Below are positions 7,494 to 52,398 of a stretch of 64,000 nt of DNA, one piece after another; within the stretch, counting starts at the first letter, position 1; each line of letters begins with the position of its first letter. Below the pieces are notes generated by a model. The model ran no database searches. It was not told the origin of the DNA and saw nothing but the letters and a program-made list of their open reading frames with translations. Origin of the DNA: Patescibacteria group bacterium (GTDB lineage Bacteria > Patescibacteriota > Microgenomatia > UBA1400 > PJMF01). Location of the stretch: NCBI GenBank assembly GCA_039934415.1, contig JBDTME010000003.1, positions 11,821-75,820 of the forward strand. The letters are read 5' to 3'. The position numbers and the translations under genes were made by a program.

Positions 7494-7499
7494 TGGTTT

Positions 7500-16400: not shown

Positions 16401-16754
16401 TGAAAATAATTTCAGACTCACAATTTTTCGTTGAATACTCGAACTTTTTAATCCTTTTTCTTGCTGATCAGCAAAGAAGCCTTTGAAGTTCTGTTCGCTC
16501 AAGACCGTCTGAATATTGTCGTCATTTGAAAAATCGAGGAATTGGAGAATGTCGCTGGAGTAGTTTCTCAGTGTTGATTTACTAACCGAAAGGGAACTCA
16601 GTTCTTTCAAAAACAGCTCCACGCAATGTTTGGCGGAAAGTGGTTGAGGTGAAGGCGCGTATTCTTGGTTTTCCACAACACCAGAAACACCCTCATCTTT
16701 TCGCTTGAATAGGCCTATGAAATTGCTGGAAAACTGTTTAATTTGGGCGAACAT
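7500..16754 (-). CDS. Giant (3084 aa) type-II-anchored surface protein with an N-terminal cytoplasmic XerD-N/SAM-like domain, a PT linker, one TM helix and a large Gly/Thr/Asn-rich beta-solenoid-like ectodomain containing four ~303-aa tandem repeats
   Basis: A single uninterrupted 9255-nt ORF. TM helix at aa 199-218 (YFHLATLVIFFIFISILWY) with positive residues before it. Repeat units share NITTAGDLAVNGGDIT...FNFFADSTAGNSTAATDNDLYIQDVLEVDGAARFDG...GGDCLKSGGTGAPTWG.C. The C-terminal region has coiled-coil / tail-fibre-like low-complexity segments. Confidence 0.85.
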   Translation of the reverse strand: MFAQIKQFSSNFIGLFKRKDEGVSGVVENQEYAPSPQPLSAKHCVELFLKELSSLSVSKSTLRNYSSDILQFLDFSNDDNIQTVLSEQNFKGFFADQQEKGLKSSSIQRKIVSLKLFSNWVEKNYLSTESQHTETPQVVTPPTPTLTPTPSASTTSIQELPAFFTQRPPSQNQDELSAKETTDEKTADRKKYQDWILGPYFHLATLVIFFIFISILWYRQFFVNVPEKFAFPAAPVTADRILSFQARLTDVAGTPITTATNTTFKLWDASSAGNLLWNSGTCSIDPDQDGIFSTILGSTCGSAIDATVFTENSQVWLEITVVSDVLTPRQRIATVPYALNAETLQGFPVNATAGASKSTVVVMNQWGEVLLGEQSPQLRSVGGTFTISGATLNLVTNSGSNGNIIIDPDGTGTINLNGNVINDGYIFTHGATISATYAGSTPLVINGTGGQVLTVNNAGDITTAGDLAVNGGDITSTGDLTINPAGGNVIFSNNTVLNIGGAGAQAYNFFADSTAGNSTAATDNDLYIQDVLEVDGAARFDGTVTVSALNTAGGIVYTNGSGQLLTSASGSGGDCLKSGGTGAPTWGACAGGGGSAGTWTIANGAHYPINETLDLLIGGTSTASAKFAIINVDSGTPTASLSAGAAGGAYLTATGILQTTADQTLTLGGTTTGDISFLPLNGAGNITADLGTTSLFNVLDGNLKIGNGTPGLTLDGEDAYIEGTFEVDGQAQFDGNVDATNGLDVTGSNLTVGGGNFSVAPASGNITTAGDLAVNGGDITTAGDLTINASGNNVLLADGNTLGVGGAAGTTFNFFADSTAGNSTAATDNDLYIQDVLEVDGAARFDGTVTFSTLNTAGGIVYTNGSGQLLTSTAGSGGDCLKSGGTGAPTWGTCGSGGNAGTWTIANGAHYPVNETLDLLIGGTSTASAKFAIINVDSGTPTASLSAGAAGGAYLTATGVLQTTADQTLTLGGTTTGDISFLPLNGAGNITADLGTTSLFTILDGNLKVGNGTPNLTQDGEDAYIEGTFEVDGQAQFDGNVDATNGLDVTGANLTVGGANFSVAQASGNITTAGDLAVNGGDITTTGDLTINAAGNNVIFADGNTLNVGGAAAAAFNFFADSTAGNSTAASDNDLYIQDVLEVDGAVRFDSSLTLSTFTTNGGLLYTNGSGVVAQTTAGSSGECLVSNAGGAPTWTSCSAAGSNFWRIANGAISPVNDTLDLLIGNTATTSAKFAIINVNSGNPTASLSAGTAGGAYLNATGTLQTTDNQALTIGGATTGDITLLPLNGAGAITADLGAATLFNILDGNLKVGNGTPGLTQNGEDGYIEGTFEVDGQAQFDGNVDATNGLDVTGANLTVGGANFSVAQASGNITTAGDLAVNGGDITTTGDLTISAAGNNVIFADGNTLNVGGAAAAAFNFFASSTATNNTADGDNDLYVQDEFEVDGAVRFDSSLTLSTFTTDGGLLYTNGSGVVAQTGQGSAGECLKSNAGGAPTFSACASANYWRIANGAISPVNDTLDLLIGNTATTSAKFAVLNVNSGTPTASLSAGDAGGAYLTAAGSLQTTANQKLTVGGATTGDINFLPLNGLGTVSVTSDLAQGARTTSALSVTQASNGSNNSASSLVSFSNSDTGSTSSVLDLSQTAANTWLGFSSISSATSGIGISMTGNTSGAISAFTGDYIKVNPGRTLTSGSIDDTGNYLDLNRSNTVNGGTTYTISGDLASFTSTCTQTSGTCTDTSNIISAAQNYANASGSVIDITNAGTGQGILLTSSSTGVLAQLDSTGAVTTADGLLIRAVNASGVITDALDVSDAEIVNAINVGDNFILGNGIRQFSSSSSVWTIEDTSGNDIATFTDGGTTGDLVLTNTISAYGNSIGLNNDASANNTLSFGAGAGQPTGDLYWGSRLLCTAASVNCGWIGSTTTTLQNAYDNDADGSNALITLNATDGSLVIRPIAGTNFQVSQVTSAPTGDMVAISNAGLGTTTANASGIGLTFVTGDGASITNNGLNIALTSGGTSAGDILNGINLTLTGTGGTETGINIGSGFDTGIAIVSAVGNEAIDLSPTAGIRTTALIDINENNTSGSAPTIQWDSAETRGGFLDANITGALSTENFIDLTTSGAFTSNLIDVNIGAQAATGDVINIDLGATAVNAQALVVGNSASVRTASMFEVNDNNSTGAVATFDLNGAGTRGGLFDIDWSGALATENLIDITANSIATANALNITENGLTTGRAINVSSTSTVLTTSDFANFDWSPSGSTEIFASAGSSLLTLNVGTYGNISKIFSVQDDSSEVFGVSQSLISNALPAEFTAAGDVAIAYDIQFTNQTASFIKSNGPLTIASGETFENNNLTLRTYGTGLLNVDAPGGSLFTVSGTTVASFNRNTSDGTIISLQQDGTQEGSISVSGTTVSYNAFTGSHYAWTDQSINKGEIVTLTDDNRRLGDRVESEILYGVVKSTVANDPKILGSYLALQESSQPASNKNPQLIMAAGNGEVWVVDQGENLQAGDYLISSNVEGHAMKEAGQFDKSYIFARVAEPVDWSTVTTTTAGGKKHKLISVLYESFVKDNAMGLTLSTDGSLSSNYTIQTPSQSANGRFSVIADATSQVVSRVGVFARLIVGEIQAGLITTKELIADRITIKDKLITPKVQTSLISPISGQQLSFNLGDADQNKLHITNKNNQDILTIDQQGNTDIVGTISAQQDLIASGSVQASTGRFEQLKAQQAQLASLEVGSATISGELFLSDGRSIQNIITDNDSYLASLSAQTEQITQAIQQAPQTVKSSAFDQFMSQLTGSSDASVSAAIQSIAQQQNIQLTSEDLVLAPSALFVKEYLSVAGYTQLNSASVSSNLTIGNNLLFTGDTIAVAGQTLFIQPTNTATVNILAGLLVLNPDGNVEINGDLVVNGNLAVKQQLNTNAMQLNDYSSDFTLKLATESAVLGESTQSKFSILDASNSAVASIDASGSARFKDLATQGIVIKQPVSQATDSASISQAAKNKTAGSMILPALATELTIENNNVSENGLIYLTPTSDTANQVLYLKSKETCNGPLALASCQKSFTVGIKNAVTQDINFNFWIVKVE
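11800..15450 (-). repeat. Four tandem in-frame repeats of about 910 nt (about 303 aa) inside the giant gene; copies 1-2 and copies 3-4 are nearly identical pairwise (A A' B B')
   Basis: Period measured from the recurring antisense-frame motif AKKLNAAAAAPPTFKVLPSAKMTL near 12.55, 13.46, 14.37 and 15.28 kb (spacings 909, 915, 912 nt). The nucleotide sequence at 12469 and at 13378 is about 90% identical. Confidence 0.8.
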
Positions 16755-26059: not shown

Positions 26060-27025
26060 ATGGTTGAAAAACAAAGATTATGTACTGAGTGTGAGTGGTT
26101 AGATTACTGTTCACTGTTAAGCTTTCTTGAATTAAATAGACAATTGTCGGAATCTGAGCTTCAAAGAACGATTGATGATAATCCTAAGTTGGGTAGCTGT
26201 TCACAAAGGCGTGAGCAAAACCTTAATCCTTCAGTACAGGACCGATGTGATGCGCTTCTAACATCACTCCGCCGAAAAAAAGTTGATTACTCTAGAGTGA
26301 ACAATGAAATTCAAGTAGATAACGAAGCAGCAAACTTTGGTGCATGGTTGGCGGGAGTTTTAGAGTCTGGGGGGAGTTTGCGCTTGAAATTAATAAATAG
26401 ATCTGGAAAACAGTATGGATCTCCTGAAATAAGATTCATAGAAAGTGATGAAAAAAAAAGAACACAGTTCATTCAATTGTTAAATGAACTGTGTTCTGCA
26501 CTGAAAGTGGGTACTCATTGGAAAGTGATAGATAAAAAAGTAGTACAAATCATTGGGTTACCAGCTGTAGAAGTAAGTTTATTGGCATTGCCTTTTGTGT
26601 TGTCAAGACAGTTGATCTTGGATTATTTTGAGAGTCATTCTATGTGGGCAAATAAAAAAGATCCTGAGTTAGAAAGTGAAGTGATAAAACAATATCTTGA
26701 ACATTCCAATCCTTCCCATTTAGAAGTTACAAAAGAACAATATCAGACTAGAATCAAAAACTCTCACTTTTTGGCCGGAGTGTTTGATTATTCTGGAACA
26801 TGTACTGATCGAGAGAGAAAAGATCGAGCGGGCGACTTTCGAAGAACGCTTCGATTACGAACCAAAAACCATATATTGTTGGAGACAATTGGCGAAAAGT
26901 TTGGCATTAAACTTTCTAAACCAAATGTCAAAGGAAGTAGAGAGTTGAGAGTAAGTGGAGATAACTGTGCTGCGATTCTCTCAGAGATGAAACCCTACCT
27001 GCGCGTACTTGGCAAATCAAAATAG
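26060..27025 (+). CDS. Free-standing protein with two LAGLIDADG-like motifs (single-chain homing-endonuclease-like) and an N-terminal Cys cluster
   Basis: Motif 1 NFGAWLAGVLESGGSLRLK; motif 2 HFLAGVFDYSGTCTDRER, with an acidic residue in the catalytic position. N-terminal CTECEWLDYC. The true start may be an internal Met. Confidence 0.65.
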   Translation: MVEKQRLCTECEWLDYCSLLSFLELNRQLSESELQRTIDDNPKLGSCSQRREQNLNPSVQDRCDALLTSLRRKKVDYSRVNNEIQVDNEAANFGAWLAGVLESGGSLRLKLINRSGKQYGSPEIRFIESDEKKRTQFIQLLNELCSALKVGTHWKVIDKKVVQIIGLPAVEVSLLALPFVLSRQLILDYFESHSMWANKKDPELESEVIKQYLEHSNPSHLEVTKEQYQTRIKNSHFLAGVFDYSGTCTDRERKDRAGDFRRTLRLRTKNHILLETIGEKFGIKLSKPNVKGSRELRVSGDNCAAILSEMKPYLRVLGKSK

Positions 27026-40727: not shown

Positions 40728-41084
40728 TCAAGCTTTATTTTCTAATTCTTTGACTACAGTTTGGATGTCATCATGAAGCTTGGGTATATCCTTATAAAGA
40801 GTATTCCAAATTCTTTCTAGATTAATACTATCGTAATCATGAGAAATCAGATGTCTTAAACCGGCAATTTGAGTCCAAGGTATATATGAATATTTCTTTT
40901 TCAGAGCTTGATCAAGTTTATTTGATGATTCTCCAATAATTTGTAATCTCATCAGAATTGCATCCTGGGTTTTTATATCGTCCACAAATTGTGTAAATGA
41001 CATATGAGCAATATGATTTTGAATTTTTTGTATTGACTCTAGAATGTCATCTAAATAGAGCAGGGGGTCACGCAATGAAAACAT
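40728..41084 (-). CDS. hepT: HepT-like (DUF86) HEPN RNase toxin
   Basis: R-x4-H-x-Y motif in GLRHLISHDYDSI. 118 aa. Immediately downstream of the MntA-like gene. Confidence 0.8.
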   Translation of the reverse strand: MFSLRDPLLYLDDILESIQKIQNHIAHMSFTQFVDDIKTQDAILMRLQIIGESSNKLDQALKKKYSYIPWTQIAGLRHLISHDYDSINLERIWNTLYKDIPKLHDDIQTVVKELENKA

Positions 41085-41088
41085 AAAA

Positions 41089-41637
41089 TTATAGAATTGG
41101 TTGTACTTGTTGTAAAACTCGATCTCGAATTCGAGGTTTTAAATATTTATATTCAACTAAATCAACAGGGCGTTTCAATTTTTCTTCGAGTTCATTCTTA
41201 AGCTGAAAATGATCAAAAAGGCTAGTACCTGGTGGTGGCTCATAAAGCAAATCAACATCACTTTCTGAGCTAAAGTCATTTGTAGTGGCAGAACCAAAAA
41301 TGCCTGCTTTTTTAACATTATGTTTTTTCAGAATTGGCAGAATTTTTTTTTGAAGTTTTCGTAGGAGAACTCTTACAGGATCATCATAAAGAATCTCGTC
41401 ATCTGTTAGCTCATCAAAATATGTTGGACCTGTATATACATTTTTCTCTCCTAGCTGAGAAAAATCGAAAGATTTTGGTTGTTTTCTTAACTCTTTCTTG
41501 AATATCTTTGCCTTTTTTTTGATTTTAGTCCCTAAATAATCTCTAATGACTTGAGCCATGGGCATGCCGTCTCGGACGGAAACTGCCTTGAGGTCGTCAT
41601 ACATTTCATCTGGGAGTTTGATTGGTAAGACTTTCAT
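41089..41637 (-). CDS. mntA: MntA-like minimal nucleotidyltransferase antitoxin with an N-terminal ribbon-helix-helix extension
   Basis: GIFGSATTNDFSSESDVDLLYE fits the GS-x9-D-x-D nucleotidyltransferase motif. The N-terminal MKVLPIKLPDEMYDDLKAVSVRDGMPMAQVIRDYL is RHH/CopG-like. It is separated by 4 nt from hepT. Confidence 0.8.
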   Translation of the reverse strand: MKVLPIKLPDEMYDDLKAVSVRDGMPMAQVIRDYLGTKIKKKAKIFKKELRKQPKSFDFSQLGEKNVYTGPTYFDELTDDEILYDDPVRVLLRKLQKKILPILKKHNVKKAGIFGSATTNDFSSESDVDLLYEPPPGTSLFDHFQLKNELEEKLKRPVDLVEYKYLKPRIRDRVLQQVQPIL

Positions 41638-41756: not shown

Positions 41757-42737
41757 ATGTCCTATAATATGCGGACTATGGAATTATTGAAGGTGTTGGC
41801 CAATGTCTTGATTGTCCTGGGGGCCTTGATCTGGATCTCGTTACGAGCTATCTGGAATTTGGTCTATTTCGCCTGGGAAGTTATTCGGGACTACACACCA
41901 TTATTTGCCAAGAAAATCAATAAATTCCTCAAGAGAGGATCAACTTCCTCGATCATATTAAGCGAGGATGTATATCCTAATCCAGACAATAAAGTGGTGT
42001 TTGATAGTTCTTGGTTGAAAGAGGCTGCTTCGCAACCGGAATACCTTCTTCCAGACCGAGCCAGGATCAACGCTGAACCATCTTTGCCAGAAAAGCGTGC
42101 CGCTCAGCCGTTGATGTTAGAAATACTTTCTAAGCTGTCATTAGCCGGGATGGTCGTAAGTTTGGCCATTTTGCTCTATATTTTCTTTCCAGATCTCGTC
42201 TACGCCGTCATTCCGATGAAGACCGAACCGATTCAAACTGCAGTCGATCAGTCAGCACTGGGGGGAAAGTTCACTGACGGTAATCTGTACTCAAAAACGA
42301 GCCTCCCCGAGAAAAATGAGTATCTCCCAGAAGGCAATTGGTTAGTGATTCCCAAGATCGACGTGATCACGAACATCAATGAGTCAGCTATCGAGACACA
42401 CGAGTCAGCCTTGAAGAAAGGAGTCTGGAGAGTGCCAGATTTTGCCGACCCGACTCAACAAAAAAAATTCCCAACCATCTTAGTGGCGCATCGATATGGC
42501 TATATTGCCTGGTCTGACCAATTTCGTCGCCAGAACTCTTTCTACCACCTTGATCAACTTGGAGTTGGAGACACTTTTGAAATCATCTGGGACCACCGAC
42601 GATTTCAGTACGAGATCTACGCTGGCGAAGAAGGCCAACAAATCACCGACTACAACGCCGACATCGTCCTTTATACCTGCAAGTACCTAAACTCTCCCGT
42701 CCGGATCTTCCGGTACGCGAGACGAGTGGAGTACTAA
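41757..42737 (+). CDS. Sortase-family transpeptidase with an N-terminal TM anchor
   Basis: LVIPKIDVITNINES...LKKGVWRVPDFADP...TILVAHRYG (catalytic His region) and LYTCKY (the TLxTC catalytic Cys motif). Confidence 0.75.
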   Translation: MSYNMRTMELLKVLANVLIVLGALIWISLRAIWNLVYFAWEVIRDYTPLFAKKINKFLKRGSTSSIILSEDVYPNPDNKVVFDSSWLKEAASQPEYLLPDRARINAEPSLPEKRAAQPLMLEILSKLSLAGMVVSLAILLYIFFPDLVYAVIPMKTEPIQTAVDQSALGGKFTDGNLYSKTSLPEKNEYLPEGNWLVIPKIDVITNINESAIETHESALKKGVWRVPDFADPTQQKKFPTILVAHRYGYIAWSDQFRRQNSFYHLDQLGVGDTFEIIWDHRRFQYEIYAGEEGQQITDYNADIVLYTCKYLNSPVRIFRYARRVEY

Positions 42738-42781: not shown

Positions 42782-45700
42782 ATGATGAGTCGAGTTTTTA
42801 AAAAGCATTGGGGAATCTTCTGCCTATTGGTAATTTTGGGCCTCATCATTGTTCGGAATTTCAGTGTTTCAATCGATATTAATGGTTGGGATAATTTTGG
42901 TATCCATCTGGATTTACCACTCAATCTGTTTAGAACTATTTTTTCTTCATGGCGGGAGTATCGAGGATTGGGTGCTCCGAATGATTCAGAAGGGGTAGAC
43001 ATCTTCAGAGTAGTTTTCTTCATTTTCTTATCGCTATTTTTCAAATTAAAAGTCTTGAACATGGTGTACTATTTCTTGCTGTTGGGCACAGGGTGCTTGG
43101 GGATGTTTTTTTTGAGCATGGAGATAGCTAAAGAGAGTAAGCTGAAACTTTTTCAACGACATTTCTATTTGGAGTTAATGGGTTTTTTGGCAGGTTTAAT
43201 GTATTTATTTAGCCTGCACACTATTGGAACTTTCTATTTGCCGATCGTGATGTATGTGGCTCGGTATGCTTTTTTTCCAGTTGTCTTGTTGTTTTTTCTG
43301 AGACTCAGTAAAGGATTGTGGTCCAAGAGTAATGTCTTCTTCTTTTGTATCTTCACTTTGTTTTTAAGCACGAGTTATTTGACCGCTACCGTCTTTTTAA
43401 CTTTCTGTCTCATTTTGATGATGATTGGTGTGTCGCGGTTGCGGTTGTTCAAGTCTTTTTTTCTGACAGGTTTATTATTTATTTTCTTAAATAGTTTTTG
43501 GCTGTTTGGTTTCATCAACTATGCTACGCAAAAATCATCGATCTTGCCGTTGGCTTCGACGTTTATTGAAGTCAACGAAATCCAGCTCAACCAAGCTGAG
43601 AAGAATTTCTCATGGGAAAATATCGTTACTTACAAACCAAGTTTTTTCACCACGACATATCAAGCGCCTGATCGATTGCAGTCATACCTTCATCCATTGG
43701 TGGACCAATTAGCGCAAAGCAATTTTTTAAGAATCCTCATTCTCATCCCAAGTTTTTTGGGGCTGACTGGTCTATTTCTCATTCTTTTTGTGTCTATTTA
43801 TAAAAAGAACATGCAGCTGCTGTGGATAGTGTGCTTAGCTGTCCTCACGCTTATTCTGTTGAGAAGAGAGAACCCTCCCACAGGGTTTATATACGATTTC
43901 TTGGGAGCAAATATTCCTTTTTTCAAGATCATTTTCCGTTTTGGGGCTGAAAAATTTAGTCAGCTCTTGGTCATCAGTCTTTCAACGTCAGCTGCCTTAT
44001 TCATGGTGATGGTGATTTGGAGCATGCAGTTCTTCAAAAAGTATTTGATAAAGAGTGTAGGGAGATTTTTTCAACTCAGTACCATCCTGATTTTTAGTTT
44101 TATTGTCATCTATCCATATGCACCTTTTTGGATGAATTCTGGATTTTTTAGTCCAATAGTGCACGTCAACATTCCAACTCAATATCAACAAGTCTCAGAG
44201 TTACTTGCCAATGATTCAACCGGTAGGGTGTTGCAGTTACCATTTGATCGGTACTCATATTGGAAGTCCTATCAGTGGGGTTACGTTGGTTCCTCCTTTT
44301 TTCACTTTTTCCTTCCGTCTGCGTTGATCGATCGTACATTTGAGCCGGCGAGTGTCGAAAACGATGAGCTTGATCAAACCATTCTCACAACATTACAAAA
44401 TGGGCAGTATTTAGAGCAACCTTATCGCAAACAACGAGCGTTGCAGTTCTATAATTTGTTGGAAAAAACGGACACTCAATTCGTGATGGTTGATGAGTCA
44501 ATAGATAAACAAGTATTGGCTCGTAATTCACAGTACTGGGGTGATTTTAATCTTGAAGATTCCAAAGCAATTGTTCAGGAGGCGGAGCAAGCAGGATTAT
44601 TCATAAAGATTTTTGATGAGCCTTTGTCGGGCAATTTTTCAAATGCTCAGCCTCCACATTTGATTGTGTATAAAACAGTTACCAGTCCGAAAATGTTTCA
44701 AGCACATTCGCAAGTTGTCGAGATTGATCCTGCGTTAAAAAATAGCTTCGTCAACTTCATGATGGATAAGGGCCAGGATTATATTCAAGATACGGCTTCG
44801 AAAACTTTTCGAACGTATCCATTTTATCGATATGATAGTCAACTCACTGAAGGGGGACAACACCTCACACTACAAACAAAGTATCAACCCACAGATCCTA
44901 TTTCTCATGTGGGATTTGAGAAAGCAGAGTCAGAGAGCCAGCTTGTTGCTGTGTTCACTGAACGATCTAACGAAGGTCTTCGAGTCAGATTGAAAAGACT
45001 ATCCAACCCCTTAGATTTTCAAAACATTTCCGAGCAATCTCAGTTTAATTTTGACTTTCAGTTGCCTGAAAAAGGTCTGAATTCGGCGGCGACGCAATCG
45101 CTAGACGGAGTAGTTGGGAACTGGGCGATGATCTCTGACGATGTGTTAGCAAATTATCGCTTACAGATCGGCCCACAAGTATTACCCATCCCACAAACAG
45201 CTGGGTATTTGGGAACCGTGTTGCTATCAGATTCAACTTTTACAGTTAATCTTCTAAAGAAGAACGATACTGTTGATTTGAAAACCAACATGGTCGAGAA
45301 AACGGCTGATTTTAATTGTTTTAAAGATAAGACGAGTGGATATCAATCATCTCTGGACTATTTAACTGATCGTATACAGGTGATAACCAAAGAAGGTACG
45401 AGTTGCCTGACTTTCCCTGTAGTGAAGAGTGGAACTCAAGAAGTAAAACATGTGGAAGTCAAATTTACAGCGCAGGCTGAACTCGAAAAAAATATCAACG
45501 AGAAAGTGATTAATTCTGCTTTATTCCAAAGAAAGACATCCCGAGAGACAGATACGTATGTTAAAAGTTTGCCCGAGCGGATGAGTTTGGGGTTATGCTT
45601 TATTGATCCTGATACTGGTCAGTGTTTGAATACGACTCAAGGGATTGAGATTAACACACAGAGAGAAGTATGGGCACCACTGGAAAAATCAGTTCAGCGA

Positions 45701-46858
45701 GAAAGTGATGTCCAAGTTCTATTTACACTGCCATCTTTTAATAAGGATTTTTCTCATTTTGAGTTAAGCCAGATCCAAACAGATGTCTTTGGATCAGTGG
45801 GTACTTCAGGTGAGTTAACGTTGAATCAAACCAACGGTGGTGATTCTTTACCATTTGAAGCCATCGATCGTATTGATATTCCATACGTTTTTTCTGACTC
45901 TGCATTTTTCATGAATTCAGAGCGGCAGCAAATGGTTGAAAGTTTCACTCGGGGATGCGAAAAGGAAACGGGTTACCGGACGGTGAGAACTTTTGACGAG
46001 ACTCGTTCGATTGGGTATGTTTCAGATTGTCAGCAAGGGTTTTACACTTTTGTTCCATTTAATCCGCAGCATCTCTATGTGTGGACGGCGCAGTACATGG
46101 TTTACTCGGGTAAAGATCCGAAATTTTTATTGGAACAAAAAGGACGATATAAAGATGAATATTTGTCTCGATACTCACTCTTCCCAAACATTCCTGGTTT
46201 CAGAACACTTCAACGGTCAGATGCCTTTCTGGGTGGTGAGACTGAGGATGCTGTCAACTCGATCAAGCAACTTTTTACAATCACACCTACTCATGAAGTG
46301 TTTACGACGGTTCCGCCACAACTAGGTGTTGAAAATGAGAAGAATATTATTCCATTTCAAATCACCCAACATTCAGAGAATCAGGGTCTTTTGGAGATAG
46401 CAAAGATGAATGTGATGGCATTACCAGGATCTTGGGATAGTTTCTTTGTTGATTTTGGGAACGTTACTCATTCATATGTGCCGGTCCAAATTACTGCTAG
46501 TCAGAGGGTGTTGCCATCTTTATGGAAAATGGATTTCTTGTTTCCTCAGAGTGATGAGAAAACGCAGTCGTTAATAGAGTTTGGTCAGGCTTTTGATACT
46601 CAGTGGGGGATCTATCGAGGGAACTCATTTCTCAGTGCGTTGTTGTTTGGTCGTGTAGATGCAAGGCATGTCAAAGTGAATGGGTGGAGTAATGGCTGGG
46701 TTTTGAATCCTGACATAGAAACACATGGCGCTTCGCAGCATTTTTATGTGTTTTATTGGCCTGAATTACTGTCTTGGTTGGGGTGGAGTGTGACGAGTAG
46801 CGTCTTTGTTGGTGTCTTAATTTCTATGTTCAAGAAAAGAAAACATGTTCACAAATAA
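42782..46858 (+). CDS. Large (1358 aa) polytopic membrane protein: about 470-aa N-terminal multi-TM domain (GT-C / YfhO / AftD-like, putative glycosyltransferase) followed by a large extracytoplasmic domain
   Basis: At least 12 hydrophobic helices in the first 470 aa, then a soluble domain. Assignment to a GT-C-like family rests on architecture only. Confidence 0.6.
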   Translation: MMSRVFKKHWGIFCLLVILGLIIVRNFSVSIDINGWDNFGIHLDLPLNLFRTIFSSWREYRGLGAPNDSEGVDIFRVVFFIFLSLFFKLKVLNMVYYFLLLGTGCLGMFFLSMEIAKESKLKLFQRHFYLELMGFLAGLMYLFSLHTIGTFYLPIVMYVARYAFFPVVLLFFLRLSKGLWSKSNVFFFCIFTLFLSTSYLTATVFLTFCLILMMIGVSRLRLFKSFFLTGLLFIFLNSFWLFGFINYATQKSSILPLASTFIEVNEIQLNQAEKNFSWENIVTYKPSFFTTTYQAPDRLQSYLHPLVDQLAQSNFLRILILIPSFLGLTGLFLILFVSIYKKNMQLLWIVCLAVLTLILLRRENPPTGFIYDFLGANIPFFKIIFRFGAEKFSQLLVISLSTSAALFMVMVIWSMQFFKKYLIKSVGRFFQLSTILIFSFIVIYPYAPFWMNSGFFSPIVHVNIPTQYQQVSELLANDSTGRVLQLPFDRYSYWKSYQWGYVGSSFFHFFLPSALIDRTFEPASVENDELDQTILTTLQNGQYLEQPYRKQRALQFYNLLEKTDTQFVMVDESIDKQVLARNSQYWGDFNLEDSKAIVQEAEQAGLFIKIFDEPLSGNFSNAQPPHLIVYKTVTSPKMFQAHSQVVEIDPALKNSFVNFMMDKGQDYIQDTASKTFRTYPFYRYDSQLTEGGQHLTLQTKYQPTDPISHVGFEKAESESQLVAVFTERSNEGLRVRLKRLSNPLDFQNISEQSQFNFDFQLPEKGLNSAATQSLDGVVGNWAMISDDVLANYRLQIGPQVLPIPQTAGYLGTVLLSDSTFTVNLLKKNDTVDLKTNMVEKTADFNCFKDKTSGYQSSLDYLTDRIQVITKEGTSCLTFPVVKSGTQEVKHVEVKFTAQAELEKNINEKVINSALFQRKTSRETDTYVKSLPERMSLGLCFIDPDTGQCLNTTQGIEINTQREVWAPLEKSVQRESDVQVLFTLPSFNKDFSHFELSQIQTDVFGSVGTSGELTLNQTNGGDSLPFEAIDRIDIPYVFSDSAFFMNSERQQMVESFTRGCEKETGYRTVRTFDETRSIGYVSDCQQGFYTFVPFNPQHLYVWTAQYMVYSGKDPKFLLEQKGRYKDEYLSRYSLFPNIPGFRTLQRSDAFLGGETEDAVNSIKQLFTITPTHEVFTTVPPQLGVENEKNIIPFQITQHSENQGLLEIAKMNVMALPGSWDSFFVDFGNVTHSYVPVQITASQRVLPSLWKMDFLFPQSDEKTQSLIEFGQAFDTQWGIYRGNSFLSALLFGRVDARHVKVNGWSNGWVLNPDIETHGASQHFYVFYWPELLSWLGWSVTSSVFVGVLISMFKKRKHVHK

Positions 46859-46864
46859 GTGTGT

Positions 46865-47821
46865 TTACTTCTCGAAGGAAAAGACGGGGCGTTGAAACTG
46901 TGTCAGGCTGCTGATGAGCCGTTTCCAGTCATTTAACAAGCGTAGTAAAGGTGTTTGGACGTGACGAATCACTCGATAGACCCACCAGTTGAATTGTGCT
47001 GGAAAGAGGTACCCCGCTGTTAGCTCAGCAATCCAGAACACTCGATCACCGAAACTAGGTGCTTGAATGCACTCGGCAGCCCATTGATGGACGGCCCAGG
47101 TTTTTTTCATTTGTCTGGAGTGGCTTTTGATAGATCCACAATCACTATGCCATCGGACTTGAGTCAGTACGGTTTGTAAATTGGCCATTTTTCCAAGCAT
47201 TCCGAGTTGATACCACATGTGGACGTCATCAGCTGGCCAAAAATATTGACTGTAGCCATCGGTTTGAAGCCAAGCATCTTTTCGGTACATGACAGTAGGG
47301 TCGGAATAAGGACTGAGGATCATCCATTGGTCACGGATTTGAGAGTCAGTTTTAGGGAATTTAATGACGTCGTACTGAGGATTGTCTTGGGTGAATAACT
47401 TGATCGCGCCTCCCACAATGACGTACTCTTGGCGACTTTCTAGAAATTTCACTTGTTTTTCGAGTCGGTCTTTGACCATGATGTCATCTTGATTGAGACG
47501 AGCAATATACTTGCCGCGTGCTTTTTTGACACCAAAATTGAGACATCGGGTCATGCCTTTATTTTTGCGAAATCCATAAAAAGAAATGTGTTTATATTTC
47601 TTTGAATATCCGAGACATTTTTTGCGACTTTGATCGCTACTACCGTCATCGACCAAAATAATCTCCACTTTTTTGTAAGTAGAGTTGAGGACCGATTCGA
47701 TCGCCTGATCCAAGTACTCGGTTCCGTTGTAAACCGGAATCAGTACCGAAACGAGTGGAGATTTAATAAGAGAGTTACTCATAGCTGATGAGATTATTCT
47801 TGTGGGATAGTATTCAGACAA
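46865..47821 (-). CDS. Family 2 glycosyltransferase
   Basis: VSVLIPVYNGTEYLDQAIESVLNSTYKKVEIILVDDGSSD is the canonical GT2 N-terminal DxD-region signature. Convergent with the large membrane protein. Confidence 0.85.
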   Translation of the reverse strand: MSEYYPTRIISSAMSNSLIKSPLVSVLIPVYNGTEYLDQAIESVLNSTYKKVEIILVDDGSSDQSRKKCLGYSKKYKHISFYGFRKNKGMTRCLNFGVKKARGKYIARLNQDDIMVKDRLEKQVKFLESRQEYVIVGGAIKLFTQDNPQYDVIKFPKTDSQIRDQWMILSPYSDPTVMYRKDAWLQTDGYSQYFWPADDVHMWYQLGMLGKMANLQTVLTQVRWHSDCGSIKSHSRQMKKTWAVHQWAAECIQAPSFGDRVFWIAELTAGYLFPAQFNWWVYRVIRHVQTPLLRLLNDWKRLISSLTQFQRPVFSFEK

Positions 47822-48066
47822 GAGTTATAAAAACGATCATTTGGCTCTTCTGTCGTGCGCTCCCAGTTTGCAGATTTTTCTGTATAAGTCGACTTACTAA
47901 CCTGAGCACAACCGAACACTCTTTGTTGTTTTTGAGAGACTTGTTGCATTTTAAAGTATTGACCCAAATTAGTTTGGATCAAAAATAACACCGCCAGAAC
48001 AACCCCAGCCCACACCAAAGTGCTGATGAGCTGAACAATAGAAGCTAGTGTCGTGTTCTGTTTCAT
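47794..48066 (-). CDS. Small hypothetical membrane protein (start placed at the internal MKQNTT; overlaps the annotated GT2 start)
   Basis: ORF with one TM helix (LISTLVWAGVVLAVLFLI). Weak support. Confidence 0.3.
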   Translation of the reverse strand: MKQNTTLASIVQLISTLVWAGVVLAVLFLIQTNLGQYFKMQQVSQKQQRVFGCAQVSKSTYTEKSANWERTTEEPNDRFYNSCLNTIPQE

Positions 48067-48212
48067 AATGAATTCGTAATAAAAAGTGACGCTCTTCAAT
48101 CTTTGATCTATTAAAAGATCCAAAACTCAAGAGCGTGCCCGCTCCCGGTCCTTTTGAAGGACTGAGGGAGCGGACAGACAAGGTAATACAGGAAAAAAAT
48201 GGAGCAACGGGG

Positions 48213-49313
48213 TTAGCCGTTGCAAGAAAAAATTACGACACCGCCGTTATTCACGCCGTTCAGCGTCAACGGACCCATCGCCTGCCAAACGCCGTAACCG
48301 CCGGCGGTGCTGTCAATGGTCAACGGGCTAACACCTTGCGGTGCGCCCTTCGAACCCCAGTCGCGCCAGAAAACGGCGATCTGGGTGTCGGTGATGGTGA
48401 CAGTGCTGTCGTCGTTAGACAAGTAACGGCTGTCGTGCGTGGAATTTTCGCCCTTGAATGCGTCCATGAATTGGACCGCGTCTTCAGGGGAAAGACCAGC
48501 AATGTCGGTGACCAACACGTTGAATTCAGCACAGGCGGAACCGCCGCCCTGACCAAGCATTTCGGGTGTCTGGACGTAGGTCAACGCGACCCAACGCCCT
48601 CCGTCAACGGCGTCAAAGCTGATTGACAAGCCAGGAGCAACGGACCAGACGCCCCATTGTCCTGAAACTGCAACGCGCTCAGCGTTAGCCGGCACGTTAC
48701 TGCCTTTGTGAAAGTCGGTCCAAAAAATCGCAGGACCAACGATGGTGACGTTATCACCTTTATTCCAGCCGCCAACGGACCCTGGGAAATTCCCCTGACC
48801 GCTTTTTAGATCGAAACGAGTGTTCAACCACCCCAAGCTTTCGCCCACGGGGTCATTTGTTTCTGCTGTTGCCAACGCCTCAAAGTACGAGGCGAAATCG
48901 AACACCAGCACTTGTCCATCAACATCCAGTGTGGGCAGCGTGGTCGGTTGAGCATTCCACTCACGGCTTTCGCCGTCCCATAACTGAACGTACAAACCCG
49001 AGGCGCCTAGCCCCCAAACTTGCCCTTCAGGGACGACGACGATCTCGACCAGCTTGATAACATCACCGACGTTAAGATCGCCGGCGTCGTTTGATTCGGG
49101 GTCCGCAAAGTTGCGGATGTTCACGTTGTAGGTGATGACCCACTCTCCAGCCAATTCGGGCCACGTTTCCGTGGTAGATAAGGTTGTCCCATCCACAACT
49201 TTTGACCCATCGGGGGTCGGGGTTGAGTTTGCGCCGTCGCGCGCTGAAACAGTTGTAACCAGTGTCATCGCCACCATGGCGACCAAGACTAACAAACTGC
49301 GGAACTTGTACAT
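48213..49313 (-). CDS. Secreted hypothetical protein (366 aa) encoded in a GC-rich (about 52-55%) segment
   Basis: Signal peptide MYKFRSLLVLVAMVAMTLVTTVSA. W/G/D-rich beta-type sequence. Local GC clearly exceeds that of the flanking genes (read by eye). Confidence 0.7.
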   Translation of the reverse strand: MYKFRSLLVLVAMVAMTLVTTVSARDGANSTPTPDGSKVVDGTTLSTTETWPELAGEWVITYNVNIRNFADPESNDAGDLNVGDVIKLVEIVVVPEGQVWGLGASGLYVQLWDGESREWNAQPTTLPTLDVDGQVLVFDFASYFEALATAETNDPVGESLGWLNTRFDLKSGQGNFPGSVGGWNKGDNVTIVGPAIFWTDFHKGSNVPANAERVAVSGQWGVWSVAPGLSISFDAVDGGRWVALTYVQTPEMLGQGGGSACAEFNVLVTDIAGLSPEDAVQFMDAFKGENSTHDSRYLSNDDSTVTITDTQIAVFWRDWGSKGAPQGVSPLTIDSTAGGYGVWQAMGPLTLNGVNNGGVVIFSCNG

Positions 49314-49589
49314 GTGTACACCTCGATAGATAGAATTTACGATTCTGCCATTTCATTCCCTTTCGGGTGGGCGACAAACCGATCTAGGGTGCTGTTTCTC
49401 TTAAGCATCCCACATCGGTTTGTCGGTCCTGAAAATGGTATTCGTAACTATCTTGGAGGAACTTTTTTTTTCGTCGAGTCGAGGGAAAGGAGAATGAGAT
49501 TTTTGTTGACTTTTTCCCTCATTCTGAGTTATAATTTCTGTATTAAACTCTCGGCCCGTAGTTCATATACTACACTTGCGGAGAGTTTT

Positions 49590-50006
49590 TTATTTCCAGG
49601 GAAAAACTGACAAGAATTGCAGACTCTTACCTGTATCTTTTATCTGTAGAACAAAGACATTTTTCTTAGTTGTGAGTCCATAAAAGCGATACAATATTTC
49701 ACTAGATTTATTAGGATTTATTTTTTGACTAGGAACTAGAGTAGTATTTTTTATCAGTTCAATTGCGCAACTGACTAATTTCAGTCTTACCAACCTTTGT
49801 TTTTTTGGTTTTTGAAAAATATGATCCCAAAAGTAATCAAAAAAAACTTTTCTTTTCCTAAAGTATCTGGATCGGATACTCATCTTTCTTTTTGTTTTTC
49901 CTTTTAAGATTAAGAAAAACTGATCGACCTCTTTTTTTACTTCTTCATAACTACTACCACTTAATAATAAACTTTTTACTTTCCAATACTGTATTTCATC
50001 TCTCAT
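49590..50006 (-). CDS. Lys-rich hypothetical protein in an AT-rich spacer between the two GC-rich genes
   Basis: 138-aa ORF, very AT-rich, basic. No motif recognised. May be spurious. Confidence 0.3.
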   Translation of the reverse strand: MRDEIQYWKVKSLLLSGSSYEEVKKEVDQFFLILKGKTKRKMSIRSRYFRKRKVFFDYFWDHIFQKPKKQRLVRLKLVSCAIELIKNTTLVPSQKINPNKSSEILYRFYGLTTKKNVFVLQIKDTGKSLQFLSVFPWK

Positions 50007-50459
50007 GTAAGTATTCTAAAGGGGGCTTCTTACAAGAAGATGACATTCCAATTCTGCCTCTTCCTAGACTCGACGAATTATTCTCATTTTTTAAATGAGA
50101 TTTTTCCTGTATGCCTTGTTAAAGATCTCTCCTGCGTGAAGCGGCGGAGAGCAAGCTCTCTTATGCCTTACGCTGGAGTAATAAGTATCGAGTAAGACAA
50201 GAAACCACGCAAAGTGGCACATGCCTTACTTGATGCCGGTATTTTAGCATAAAAAGACACAAAATGCAATGCTATGGGACTAAATATGGTAGATTAGAGT
50301 AATTGAGTTGTTAGGAAAAAAGAGGAATGTGGAACTTATGTTAAGGTGGTTTTCCTTAAACCTTCGAGTATCAACTCCAAGGTTAAAGGAAAAGGGCGAC
50401 CTCGTGAGTCGCCCTTTGTGACAAAGTCATATGTTTTGGCCTTTCGGCCTATTAAATTT

Positions 50460-51368
50460 TTATCCACGCCTAAACGGCGTGGATGTTGTTGTTGCCGTCG
50501 GCACCTGTGAAGGCGCCATGACGGTTGGCACTACCAGTGTCCCGACCTCCCGGGTGGGAGTCGGGTCCTCTGGTGTTGATGTTGCCGTGGCGCGTTCTGG
50601 AACGTTTGTGAAGTCGCAGATATCTGAAGTAATCCACCACTGTCCGAATCCGCTAAGATTTTTACCAGCAACCAGGATTTTAATCCACCTCCCACTTTTC
50701 TCAACTGGGATGATCTGGCTGCCTGCCATAATTTTGATATCGGACGCTGGTGCATTTATTCCCAGATGAACCACCGCGTCTTTGTTCAAAGTGCACGCGG
50801 TTGATGGTACTTGCGTCGGCACCTGTGAAGGCGCGACTGTTGTGACGACAATTACCGGATTTGGCGTTTCTGTTGCAAAAACGCTTGTACCACCATTGAA
50901 CATCGCGGTCACTGTAGCATTTGCTTCGTCCATCACTTTAGTTGTTTCCGCTTGCGCGGTCCCAACTACACTGTTTGCCTGGGCATTGACCTCAGTTTGC
51001 TGCGCTGACTGTGTCGCAAAATCAACTGTCGCTTGGAGGGCGACAATTGTCGCATCCTCCGAATTGAAAGTTGCTGTAGCTGTCGGTTGCAGCGGGATGG
51101 CGGTCATTGTTGCGACCGCACCCTGTGCTGCCTGAGCCTGCTCTTCGGGAGTAAGGGGCTTAATCTGGCTGATTGCCAGAAAAAAACCACTACCTACCAA
51201 AGCTACAAACACAATCGCCAAAATCCTTTTCCAGTTCCAGTTTAGGCGACGTGGGCGGCTGCTAACCGCAACCGGTGTGCGGCGCGAGGGAGTGACATCG
51301 GCTTCACCTTCTTCGTGTTCGACAACATCTTTTTCGTACATTCTGTCGAGTTGCGGTAACTTGGACAT
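50460..51368 (-). CDS. Type-II membrane-anchored protein with an Ala/Thr/Gln-rich ectodomain and a bacterial SH3-like segment, also GC-rich
   Basis: Start placed at MSKLPQ, which has an AGGAGA Shine-Dalgarno sequence; the ORF extends to 51419. TM helix ILAIVFVALVGSGFFLAI. SH3b-like SGRWIKILVAGKNLSGFGQWWITSD. A hairpin (GGGCGAC...GTCGCCC) lies downstream at 50388-50420. Confidence 0.6.
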   Translation of the reverse strand: MSKLPQLDRMYEKDVVEHEEGEADVTPSRRTPVAVSSRPRRLNWNWKRILAIVFVALVGSGFFLAISQIKPLTPEEQAQAAQGAVATMTAIPLQPTATATFNSEDATIVALQATVDFATQSAQQTEVNAQANSVVGTAQAETTKVMDEANATVTAMFNGGTSVFATETPNPVIVVTTVAPSQVPTQVPSTACTLNKDAVVHLGINAPASDIKIMAGSQIIPVEKSGRWIKILVAGKNLSGFGQWWITSDICDFTNVPERATATSTPEDPTPTREVGTLVVPTVMAPSQVPTATTTSTPFRRG

Positions 51369-51894
51369 CTTGATACTCTCCTGAGTTTTTGGGAGCGGAA
51401 TGCTCCCATAAGCGAACAAATTGATTCGCAGCCGTTTCCCTTTTTCAGGGGGTCCGGCTGACCGAGCATCATACTATCTATATATAAATATGATCGTCGG
51501 TCAGTCGAACGTTGAAACGGTGCTTACTCATGTAGGAGAATCGCGATGCACAACAATAGAACACAAAACTAGTTTGTTATAAACATATGACTTGTTAATG
51601 TTCGTCTACGCTTTTGCCTTGGCTTTCGTAATGAAAGAAAGGGTGAAACGCGGACAATATTTTCTGCAAGAGTGTCGCTGTTTGAGGACAAGTCCTCATG
51701 AGCGACAGGTTTCAAGCAGAGAAGTGGGTCGAAGTCTTCGGCCAATTTCTCTACTGGCATGCGTTTACAGATTAACTTTTTAAGGGGTTTATTATACCAC
51801 AAAAAGCCGCCAATTTCAAGTTATAGGATAGTTACCTGGCCTTTTGGTCTGTCTCTATTTCTGGTTTTATTAGGCATTAAGCGCTTCAGAACCA

Positions 51895-51963: not shown

Positions 51964-52254
51964 TTAGGCGTTGACCTTTGAATAGGTGTATCCAGCGGCT
52001 GAGAGAACGAACAAGGCTGCGACTGCAAACACGATGTTGTCACCTAAACCAGCGGCAATTGGAGGATGAACCTTCTCAACTGGGACATTTTTACAGGTTT
52101 GTTGTCCATACGCACCAGTTGTACACTCTTCTCGAGTGACTGGGGTAGGAGTAGGTGTTGCTGAAGCTCCATCTGCAAAAGCAGTGGTAGCACTCAGGAA
52201 CAAGGCAACTAAACTGATCCCTGTAGCAATGACTGTTTTATAGGTTGTATTCAT
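51964..52254 (-). CDS. Small secreted protein with a C-terminal hydrophobic anchor (possible sorting signal)
   Basis: Start placed at MNTTYK; the ORF extends to 52353. Signal peptide, PTPTP linker, then C-terminal GLGDNIVFAVAALFVLSAAGYTYSKVNA. Confidence 0.45.
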   Translation of the reverse strand: MNTTYKTVIATGISLVALFLSATTAFADGASATPTPTPVTREECTTGAYGQQTCKNVPVEKVHPPIAAGLGDNIVFAVAALFVLSAAGYTYSKVNA

Positions 52255-52398
52255 ACTTTTCCCTTCGCCGTTAGCGAGGCATGCTTTGCTGCGACTGATT
52301 CGTGTAATACCGTTTGTTTGGCAGCTAAAGTGATGGGAGGATTGTAACACCAAAAAAACATTCTGTCAACAGTTATGGGATAGTCTGAGGTGAGCGGG

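Follow-up and report, generated by a model that had tools for sequence, protein, structure and literature searches.

The window analysed here, a stretch of 64,000 nucleotides from a metagenome-assembled genome (MAG) named 'Patescibacteria group bacterium' (locus tags ABI425_), contains two GC-rich genes for exported proteins, referred to below as A and B, with a short AT-rich open reading frame (ORF) between them. Gene A (ABI425_03655; 48213-49313, minus strand) encodes a secreted protein of 366 amino acids, and gene B (ABI425_03665; 50460-51368, minus strand, with the start given by NCBI) encodes a type-II membrane-anchored protein of 302 amino acids that is rich in Ala, Thr, Val and Pro. The middle ORF (ABI425_03660; 49590-50006, minus strand) encodes a basic protein of 138 amino acids. 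The GC content is 55.8% in A (0.567, 0.469 and 0.638 at the first, second and third codon positions, the last referred to as GC3), 52.6% in B (GC3 0.498) and 28.8% in the middle ORF (GC3 0.245, 16% Lys), against 43.4% for the whole window. In 200-bp windows the composition steps sharply at the gene borders, with values of 0.51-0.60 in A, 0.26-0.34 in the middle ORF and 0.47-0.56 in B. A first-pass annotation of this DNA had picked out the same pattern, and the measured composition bears out its description of A and B as GC-rich and of the ORF between them as AT-rich and Lys-rich; the GC-rich run that it quoted lies at 48298-48328. The contrast with the surroundings is also as described, with a background nearer to 43% than to its estimate of about 40%.

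To separate protein composition from codon choice, an expected composition was derived for each gene from its own amino acids and the synonymous codon frequencies in the rest of the window genes. Gene A is expected to have a GC content of 49.9% and a GC3 of 0.450, against a background GC of 0.44, and its measured GC3 of 0.638 gives z = +7.7, the highest among 45 ORFs (the runner-up reaches +4.7). It also tops the window in GC and in dinucleotide distance (0.168). Gene B is atypical by GC alone, as its expected values are 50.1% GC and a GC3 of 0.428, and the measured GC3 of 0.498 (z = +2.6) falls within the normal spread of the window. The middle ORF deviates in the other direction (GC3 z = -4.4). 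Amino acids account for about 49% of the GC excess in A and about 70% in B. The amino-acid-driven bias that the first-pass annotation had put forward as one possible cause therefore holds for these shares and leaves the GC3 of A unexplained; codon usage in B essentially matches that of the other genes, and in A it does not.

Gene A is part of a gene order that is found in many Microgenomates, and we compared it with related loci (L numbers) and homologous proteins (P numbers). In the window it is followed by a small single-transmembrane (TM) protein of about 90 amino acids, present after the GC-rich gene in most related loci (47794-48066, minus strand; translation and locus comparison), then by a glycosyltransferase of family GT2, which anchors the module and is well conserved, with 62-77% identity among relatives (46865-47821, minus strand; Pfam PF00535, 1.5e-31; alignment A3), and by a convergent partner, a membrane protein of 1,358 residues that is polytopic and has a large portion outside the cytoplasm (42782-46858, plus strand; translation and alignment A2). 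The order of A homologue, TM protein of about 90 residues, GT2 and convergent membrane protein of about 1,350 residues is kept in L003, L004, L007, L008, L032 and L033, and likewise in 19 further syntenic loci that were fetched with GT2 from GTDB species genomes (Roizmanbacteria, Woesebacteria, Gottesmanbacteria and other Microgenomates). All of the full-length A homologues with readable context (P0003, P0004, P0006, P0007, P0008 and P0020) occupy this same position in Microgenomates. A second protein family that cannot be aligned with A stands there in L012, L016, L019, L021 and L025-L028, which are Roizmanbacteria-like; its members are small secreted or anchored proteins of 190-280 amino acids with the motifs LKYDETGCD, FPAIFVRRIQSG and VWCP and a C-terminal …WAVxV[HKQ].

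The GC anomaly is tied to this position. A GC-rich gene (54-66% GC, against backgrounds of 30-51%) was found there in 22 of the 23 evaluable related loci, each A homologue ranks first or second in GC within its own locus, and the genes of the second family are as GC-rich as the A homologues. Examples are the homologues in L003 (55.0% GC, GC3 0.60, in a locus of 41.5%), L004 (61.3%, GC3 0.73, beside small-TM and GT2 genes of 36-40%) and L033 (60.2%, GC3 0.73, beside genes of 40%), and the extreme is the second-family gene of L027, with 65.6% GC and a GC3 of 0.84 against a coding background of 35%. Averaged over 25 genes at or adjoining this position in 22 genomes, gene GC is 0.577, compared with 0.411 for background coding sequence (CDS) and 0.494 expected from amino acids, and GC3 is 0.639 against an expected 0.416 (median z of +8.2). 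Proteins elsewhere that share a domain with A, the undescribed beta domain treated below, are not GC3-rich (0.41 in the giant adhesin P0005 and 0.29 in the trypsin fusion P0018), which indicates that the anomaly goes with the position in Microgenomates and is no property of the domain. Between the window and L003, synonymous sites are saturated, with a proportion of synonymous differences (pS) of 0.76-0.81 in A, GT2 and the large membrane protein; the closest pair that we found, L016 and L028, has a pS of 0.57 in the gene at this position. An old donor signature could therefore not have persisted, and the high GC3 must be kept up by a force that is still acting. A chimeric contig is ruled out, as the pattern recurs in many independent assemblies.

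The synonymous bias of gene A is mainly C-ending and A-avoiding, unlike that of GC-rich genomes or of a GC-rich donor. Relative to the background, C at third positions (C3) rises from 0.247 to 0.386 and G3 from 0.182 to 0.252, A3 falls from 0.256 to 0.14, and T3 is barely lowered. In two-fold NNY boxes the C fraction is 0.71 in A compared with 0.41 in the background, and the remaining genes at the position range from 0.43 to 0.80. GAA is kept over GAG, whose fraction is not raised (0.31 in A and 0.09 in L003), and GAG, AAG and CAG are not dominant; Arg is encoded by CGY codons only, and ATA, AGA and AGG are avoided. The excess ends with the CDS, as GC averages 0.44-0.47 ahead of it, 0.55-0.57 within it and 0.36 at 100-200 nt past its end. 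Gene A and the four ribosomal-protein genes of the window both favour TAC, AAC, ATC, ACC and GAA, but the ribosomal-protein genes prefer the A-ending CCA, TCA and GGA (A3 0.34 versus 0.14) where A uses CCC/CCG, GCG and GGC.

A and B also stand out in the predicted folding of their mRNAs. Folding was scored as a z value against permutations of synonymous codons within each gene, which leave both the protein and the codon usage fixed, and the energies are predictions. B (z = -5.0) and A (z = -4.6) are the most over-folded of 39 window genes, for which the median is -0.5, and the remaining high-GC3 genes of the window have no excess folding. Dinucleotide-preserving shuffles of whole transcripts gave -4.2 for A and -6.4 for B, compared with -1.5 for GT2 as a control. 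In other genomes, 21 genes at the position have a median z of -2.7, against -0.44 for 131 neighbouring controls (Mann-Whitney p = 7e-7), and some of them reach -8 to -12. The excess is greater on the sense than on the antisense strand (p = 0.015; -5.3 versus -1.2 in A) and therefore fits selection on the RNA. Third in the window after B and A is the gene for ribosomal protein L11 (58381-58803, minus strand; z = -3.2).

Along the transcript of gene A, predicted folding is weak around the ribosome-binding site and uniformly strong throughout the body. The upstream profile peaks at a leader hairpin of about -30 kcal/mol per 60 nt (49372-49425, minus strand), an inverted repeat of 86% complementarity with a 22-bp stem, located 59 nt upstream of the ATG. 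Hairpins of similar strength were also found ahead of the genes that occupy the position in other genomes, with a median best 70-nt minimum free energy of -31.9 kcal/mol compared with -19.5 kcal/mol in 65 control upstream regions (p = 4e-6). A Shine-Dalgarno (SD) sequence, GAGGTG, can be read 5 nt before the ATG (49319-49324, minus strand), and the orthologues have AAGGAGG-type sites at the same place. At the other end, a terminator scan detected a hairpin and T run resembling an intrinsic terminator across the stop codon of A (48204-48223, minus strand) and a second terminator-like hairpin at 48128-48147. Directly 3' of B, a terminator-like hairpin, GGGCGAC-N7-GTCGCCC followed by TTTTCCTTT, was read from the sequence (50385-50414, minus strand) after being missed by the simple scan. 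Rfam has no family in this region, the closest being a sub-threshold MicX match on the terminator of B (27.6 bits, against a gathering score of 75). A promoter scan of the minus strand over 49314-49590 returned no site, and comparison of the window spacers with those of the other loci revealed no conserved sequence. Two of these other loci resemble each other in their leaders: L015 (about 60-259) and L032 (about 7800-8000) share CTTTAAAAGAAGTTCTTTGACAA(A)GCAGA, which includes a -35-like TTGACA and is followed by TTCCTCC (the complement of the SD), a long hairpin GGCATTGCCTGCGC…GCAGGCAATGCC and AAGGAGGGA. In the window, GTTCCTCCAAG is also present in the leader of gene A, about 150 nt upstream of its ATG. 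Together these elements may represent a conserved leader RNA with a regulatory or stabilising role.

The explanation that we favour, with about even confidence, is that both genes are native, encode envelope proteins and are under selection, throughout the lineage, for transcripts that are GC-rich and structured. The GC-richness of A would then be gene-specific and actively maintained, not a historical trace, with about half of the excess coming from protein composition and the other half from synonymous choice. What is selected would most likely be the transcript, with its GC-rich and heavily paired CDS, open ribosome-binding site, strong upstream stem-loop and tight terminator, a layout known from long-lived, high-yield mRNAs like those of S-layer and major outer-membrane proteins. 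Gene B has the same predicted hyper-folding of its mRNA, yet owes its GC mostly to its amino acids. S-layer genes have been reported to have strong promoters and mRNAs with 6-10 times the average stability, and stem-loops at the 5' end are stabilising (PMC8056022). A broader idea, which we regard as possible but put forward only tentatively, is that Microgenomates have retained a cassette devoted to expressing their main envelope protein, whether S-layer-like or used for attachment to a host or wall, consisting of a stem-loop leader and a hyper-folded CDS 12-30 GC points above the genome.

The first-pass annotation had instead suggested that A and B were recently acquired from a GC-rich host or partner, and gene A, as the most atypical gene of the window in GC, GC3 and dinucleotide signature, does have the look of a foreign gene; word-indexed protein searches gave only self-matches for A and B, and the window encodes the competence proteins ComEA and ComEC. 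This reading conflicts with the recurrence of both the synteny and the anomaly in more than 20 independent Microgenomates assemblies, with the saturation of synonymous sites between orthologues that are both high in GC3, and with a codon pattern in which GAG stays low. No direct repeats flank A or B and no integrase or transposase adjoins them, while the nearest tRNA is more than 10 kb off; no donor lineage or donor homologue for A was found among 1.84 billion representative proteins, and all of its full-length relatives with readable context are from Microgenomates. Recent horizontal transfer of A and B is not supported by these observations, and we consider it scarcely credible. The view that amino-acid composition alone is responsible, with no force on synonymous sites, is also very improbable. 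It draws on the expected GC of 0.499 for A and 0.501 for B, against a background of 0.44, and on the unremarkable GC3 of B, but it fails on the GC3 of A and of its counterparts across genomes, and on the non-random arrangement of synonymous codons in both A and B. It is refuted for A; for B, amino-acid composition is the main cause of the GC level and not of the folding excess.

Two further processes could act on the genes where they stand. Under the first of these, the position is a cassette-like hot spot at which fast-evolving surface genes are repeatedly swapped among Microgenomates by homologous recombination through conserved flanks, and GC-biased gene conversion lifts their GC. The genes at this position do evolve fast and belong to at least two sequence families, beside a GT2 that is 62-87% identical and whose pairwise identities those of A do not follow, and competence genes are present in the window. 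Conversion should spill over into the flanks, however, whereas the GC excess ends at the CDS and the spacers are AT-rich; strand-neutral conversion should lift G and C alike, whereas the bias is strand-asymmetric, with C3 well above G3, A3 halved and T3 barely down; and the folding excess is stronger on the sense strand. The reported effects of GC-biased gene conversion in bacteria are far smaller than the GC3 increases of +0.15 to +0.46 seen here. We therefore regard this account as quite improbable. Classical translational selection, in which A is very highly expressed, its optimal codons happen to be C-ending and the folding is a by-product, is unlikely but deserves more weight. The codons that A shares with the ribosomal-protein genes, the restriction of Arg to CGY, the avoidance of ATA, AGA and AGG and the strong SD sites all speak for it. 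Against it, the synonymous deviations of A and of the ribosomal-protein genes are uncorrelated (r = 0.02) and their A3 values differ, so any expression-driven bias would not operate through the usual optimal-codon set; moreover, the shuffles hold codon usage fixed, so that codon preference alone cannot yield the folding excess. Ordinary optimal-codon selection is at most part of the answer.

Several observations weigh against selection on transcript structure as the explanation, and the lack of correlation with the ribosomal-protein genes is one of them. The gene of L003, the closest orthologue, is GC3-rich but has no excess folding (z = -0.3), three other genes at the position behave likewise, and about 6% of control genes reach z < -3. 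The folding energies are predictions, and the orthologues are too diverged for covariation analysis. In L023 the position is occupied by a related protein whose gene has no excess of GC, GC3 or folding. The pairwise identities of A do not follow those of GT2 (rho = 0.09) and reach rho = 0.33 against those of the large membrane protein; strictly vertical descent of A is shown no further than the window-L003 pair, and A may have been exchanged among Microgenomates. Finally, an abundant protein and a stable mRNA, as what selection would favour, are our inference.

Both proteins appear to be exported, in agreement with the first-pass annotation, as their translations contain a signal peptide in A and a type-II anchor in B. 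The signal peptide of A spans residues 1-24 (49242-49313, minus strand) and reads MYKFRSLLVLVAMVAMTLVTTVSA/RDG (...TTVSA/RDG); residues 2-25 were modelled as an N-terminal helix, and the homologues have equivalent N-termini. An AlphaFold2 (AF2) model built on the family alignment A1 reached a mean confidence (pLDDT) of 71.9, while a single-sequence run gave only 35. In this model, residues of about 56-123 (48945-49148, minus strand) form an SH3b-like beta domain, for which Foldseek searches of PDB and BFVD returned the wall-binding SH3b domains of lysostaphin, ALE-1 and phage endolysins (including 4lxc, 1r77, 7aqh, 5udn, 9kz1 and BFVD endolysins) with probabilities of 0.92-1.0, at E-values of just 5e-3 to 0.1. 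The best SH3b profile match of A in PDB is the SH3b domain of PlySb (E = 0.055), and neither A nor B matched the SH3_3, SH3_5 or SH3b profiles of Pfam or NCBIfam at E <= 0.1. Two copies of an undescribed beta domain make up the C-terminal half, the first with the motif GPAxFWTD...P.GV.RV.TqGnWGV...GGRW (48573-48776, minus strand; alignment A1) and the second with VFWRDWG...GGYGVW...NGG (48216-48434, minus strand; alignment A1 and model strands 294-363). This domain recurs 10 times in P0005, a giant Bacteroidota-type adhesin, and has a weak profile match to the surface glycan-binding protein 6e57 (E = 0.021) and none in Pfam. A thus combines a signal peptide, seen in the sequence, with an N-terminal module of wall-anchoring type, seen at the fold level, and is probably a Sec-secreted protein with an SH3b-like domain of the wall-binding type and two new beta domains. 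We infer that A may bind the wall and may be functionally linked to the glycosyltransferases.

The protein encoded by A is rich in Gly, Val, Trp and Asp and, like that of B, poor in Lys and Ile. A full HMMER scan of the 1.84 billion representative proteins recovered 17 relatives, the best being P0003, with 42% identity over the full length, and a scan of metagenome contigs recovered none. Genes A and B and the middle ORF are all annotated as 'hypothetical' by NCBI and have no Pfam, NCBIfam or PHROG match. In particular, A matches no SLH, CWB2, SLAP or other S-layer family in Pfam, and a Foldseek match to domain III of SlpX was weak and low-ranked. Gene B has a single TM helix at residues 49-66 (51171-51224, minus strand; read from the translation) between a basic cytoplasmic N-terminus with RPRRLNWNWKR and an ectodomain in which Ala, Thr, Val and Pro are abundant, and contains a 39-nt internal repeat. 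No homologue of B was found by word-indexed search, by jackhmmer over the fetched loci, by phmmer against PDB or by hhalign against the A family, and BLASTP against the positionally equivalent protein of L003 gave E = 0.25. The SH3b-like domain that had been assigned to B has no sequence match in Pfam, NCBIfam or PDB, and hhalign gave a probability of 0.2% against the A family; an SH3b-like fold was instead predicted in A. We also considered A and B as target genes of a diversity-generating retroelement and rejected this, as the scanned window ORFs contain no reverse transcriptase domain and no template/variable repeat pair involves either gene.

Gene A resembles the genes for S-layer and other major surface proteins, such as sap and eag of B. 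anthracis and ompA of E. coli with its 5' stem-loop, in encoding a secreted envelope protein with a domain of wall-binding type, in being apparently monocistronic, with a long leader containing a strong stem-loop, a good SD and a tight terminator, and in the fast evolution of its protein sequence. Unlike S-layer proteins, A has no known S-layer domain and is small, at 366 amino acids (190-280 in the second family). S-layer proteins form two-dimensional lattices and rank among the most abundant proteins of a cell, a role for which A would be a candidate. In ompA-type mRNAs the stem-loop lies at the very 5' end and the half-life is long; the 22-bp stem-loop of A would be its counterpart as a predicted leader element. 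To our knowledge, a GC rise of 12-30 points with hyper-folding of the whole CDS has not been described for genes of the S-layer type. The likeness to the SH3b domains of lysostaphin, ALE-1 and phage endolysins is at the fold level for residues of about 56-123 and does not extend to membership by sequence, and A has no catalytic domain. As in 'alien' genes and genomic islands, A is flagged by GC, GC3 and dinucleotide signature, but unlike them it recurs, anomaly included, at one conserved position throughout a class-level lineage, with saturated synonymous sites and no mobility signatures. GC-rich islands are reported to mark structured RNA genes in AT-rich genomes, in screens for rRNA, tRNA and ncRNA (Klein, Misulovin and Eddy, in 2002), and A likewise combines a local rise in GC with strong predicted structure in an AT-richer genome; in contrast to such RNA genes, it is protein-coding, with conserved protein motifs and no Rfam match. 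Literature searches on GC-rich or codon-biased genes in bacteria of the candidate phyla radiation (CPR) returned nothing relevant and no account of such a gene position.

A sharp island of GC and GC3 is thus not equivalent to horizontal transfer at this locus, where the 'alien' composition is itself conserved and inherited. Drift and mutation bias are commonly taken to shape tiny AT-leaning genomes, in which the pattern described here would point to selection of unusual strength on the synonymous sites and mRNA folding of a particular gene. If the dedicated cassette exists, selection on the structure of a whole transcript can override genomic mutational bias at one gene through the history of a class-level lineage. 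The uncharacterised secreted family with an SH3b-like and two new beta domains and the second family are both tied to the module of GT2 and giant membrane protein, and A and its counterparts are candidate proteins of the abundant layer that has been seen at the surface of ultra-small bacteria, for which we know of no established protein identity. If the cassette exists, a GC-rich, hyper-folded gene beside this module could also provide a sequence-only route to the major surface proteins of CPR bacteria.

The middle ORF probably has a different history. It belongs to a family of about 135 amino acids with no known domain (14 homologues at 41-55% identity, giving 15 aligned members), which occurs at varied sites in different Patescibacteria, for example at 6001-6405 in L009 and 6001-6423 in L011, and is always AT-rich, about 10 GC points below its own locus. 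It is missing from the spacer between A and B in all of the other loci examined and is probably a later insertion there. If anything in this region was inserted recently, it would be this ORF and not the GC-rich genes. A mobile element with inverted repeats was considered for it and rejected, as an imperfect 21-nt repeat (49470-49490 and 50057-50077) is absent around the homologues in L009 and L011 and is probably due to chance.

The large membrane protein is found across Microgenomates with an invariant GWDNF motif, always convergent to the GT2 gene, and has no Pfam, NCBIfam or PDB match. The wider cluster around A is devoted to the envelope and includes MreB, a PEGA protein, sortase-substrate-like proteins and WecG; L003 keeps the window order of MreB, the PEGA protein, small secreted proteins and a type-II-anchored protein. 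A gene at 41757-42737 (plus strand) looks sortase-like by eye (…VAHR…LYTC…) and has no Pfam match, and L032 encodes a Pfam-recognised sortase and a CLIPPER protein at the equivalent place. At 51964-52353 (minus strand) lies a gene for a small secreted protein with a hydrophobic C-terminal tail that resembles a sorting signal. Several MAG records that contain the Microgenomates cluster (L012-L015, L018, L022, L024-L027 and L030) are titled Gammaproteobacteria, Pseudomonadales, Vitreimonas or Bacteriovorax, and their taxonomy is probably mislabelled.

Elsewhere in the window, two giant surface proteins are encoded at 3417-16754 (minus strand), one of 1,358 amino acids with five Laminin_G_3 domains and one of 3,084 amino acids whose sole match is a weak N-terminal Phage_int_SAM_1; the region 12000-16000 has a GC content of about 50%, chiefly through GC2, which is driven by amino acids. 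A HepT-like RNase and an MNT nucleotidyltransferase, forming a HEPN/MNT toxin-antitoxin pair, are encoded at 40728-41084 and 41089-41637 (minus strand), with a GC3 of about 0.24 in both. A 321-residue ORF at 26060-27025 (plus strand) has a GC3 of 0.30 (z = -4.7), two motifs that by eye resemble LAGLIDADG and a weak match to an HNH endonuclease in PHROG, and looks like a free-standing homing endonuclease.

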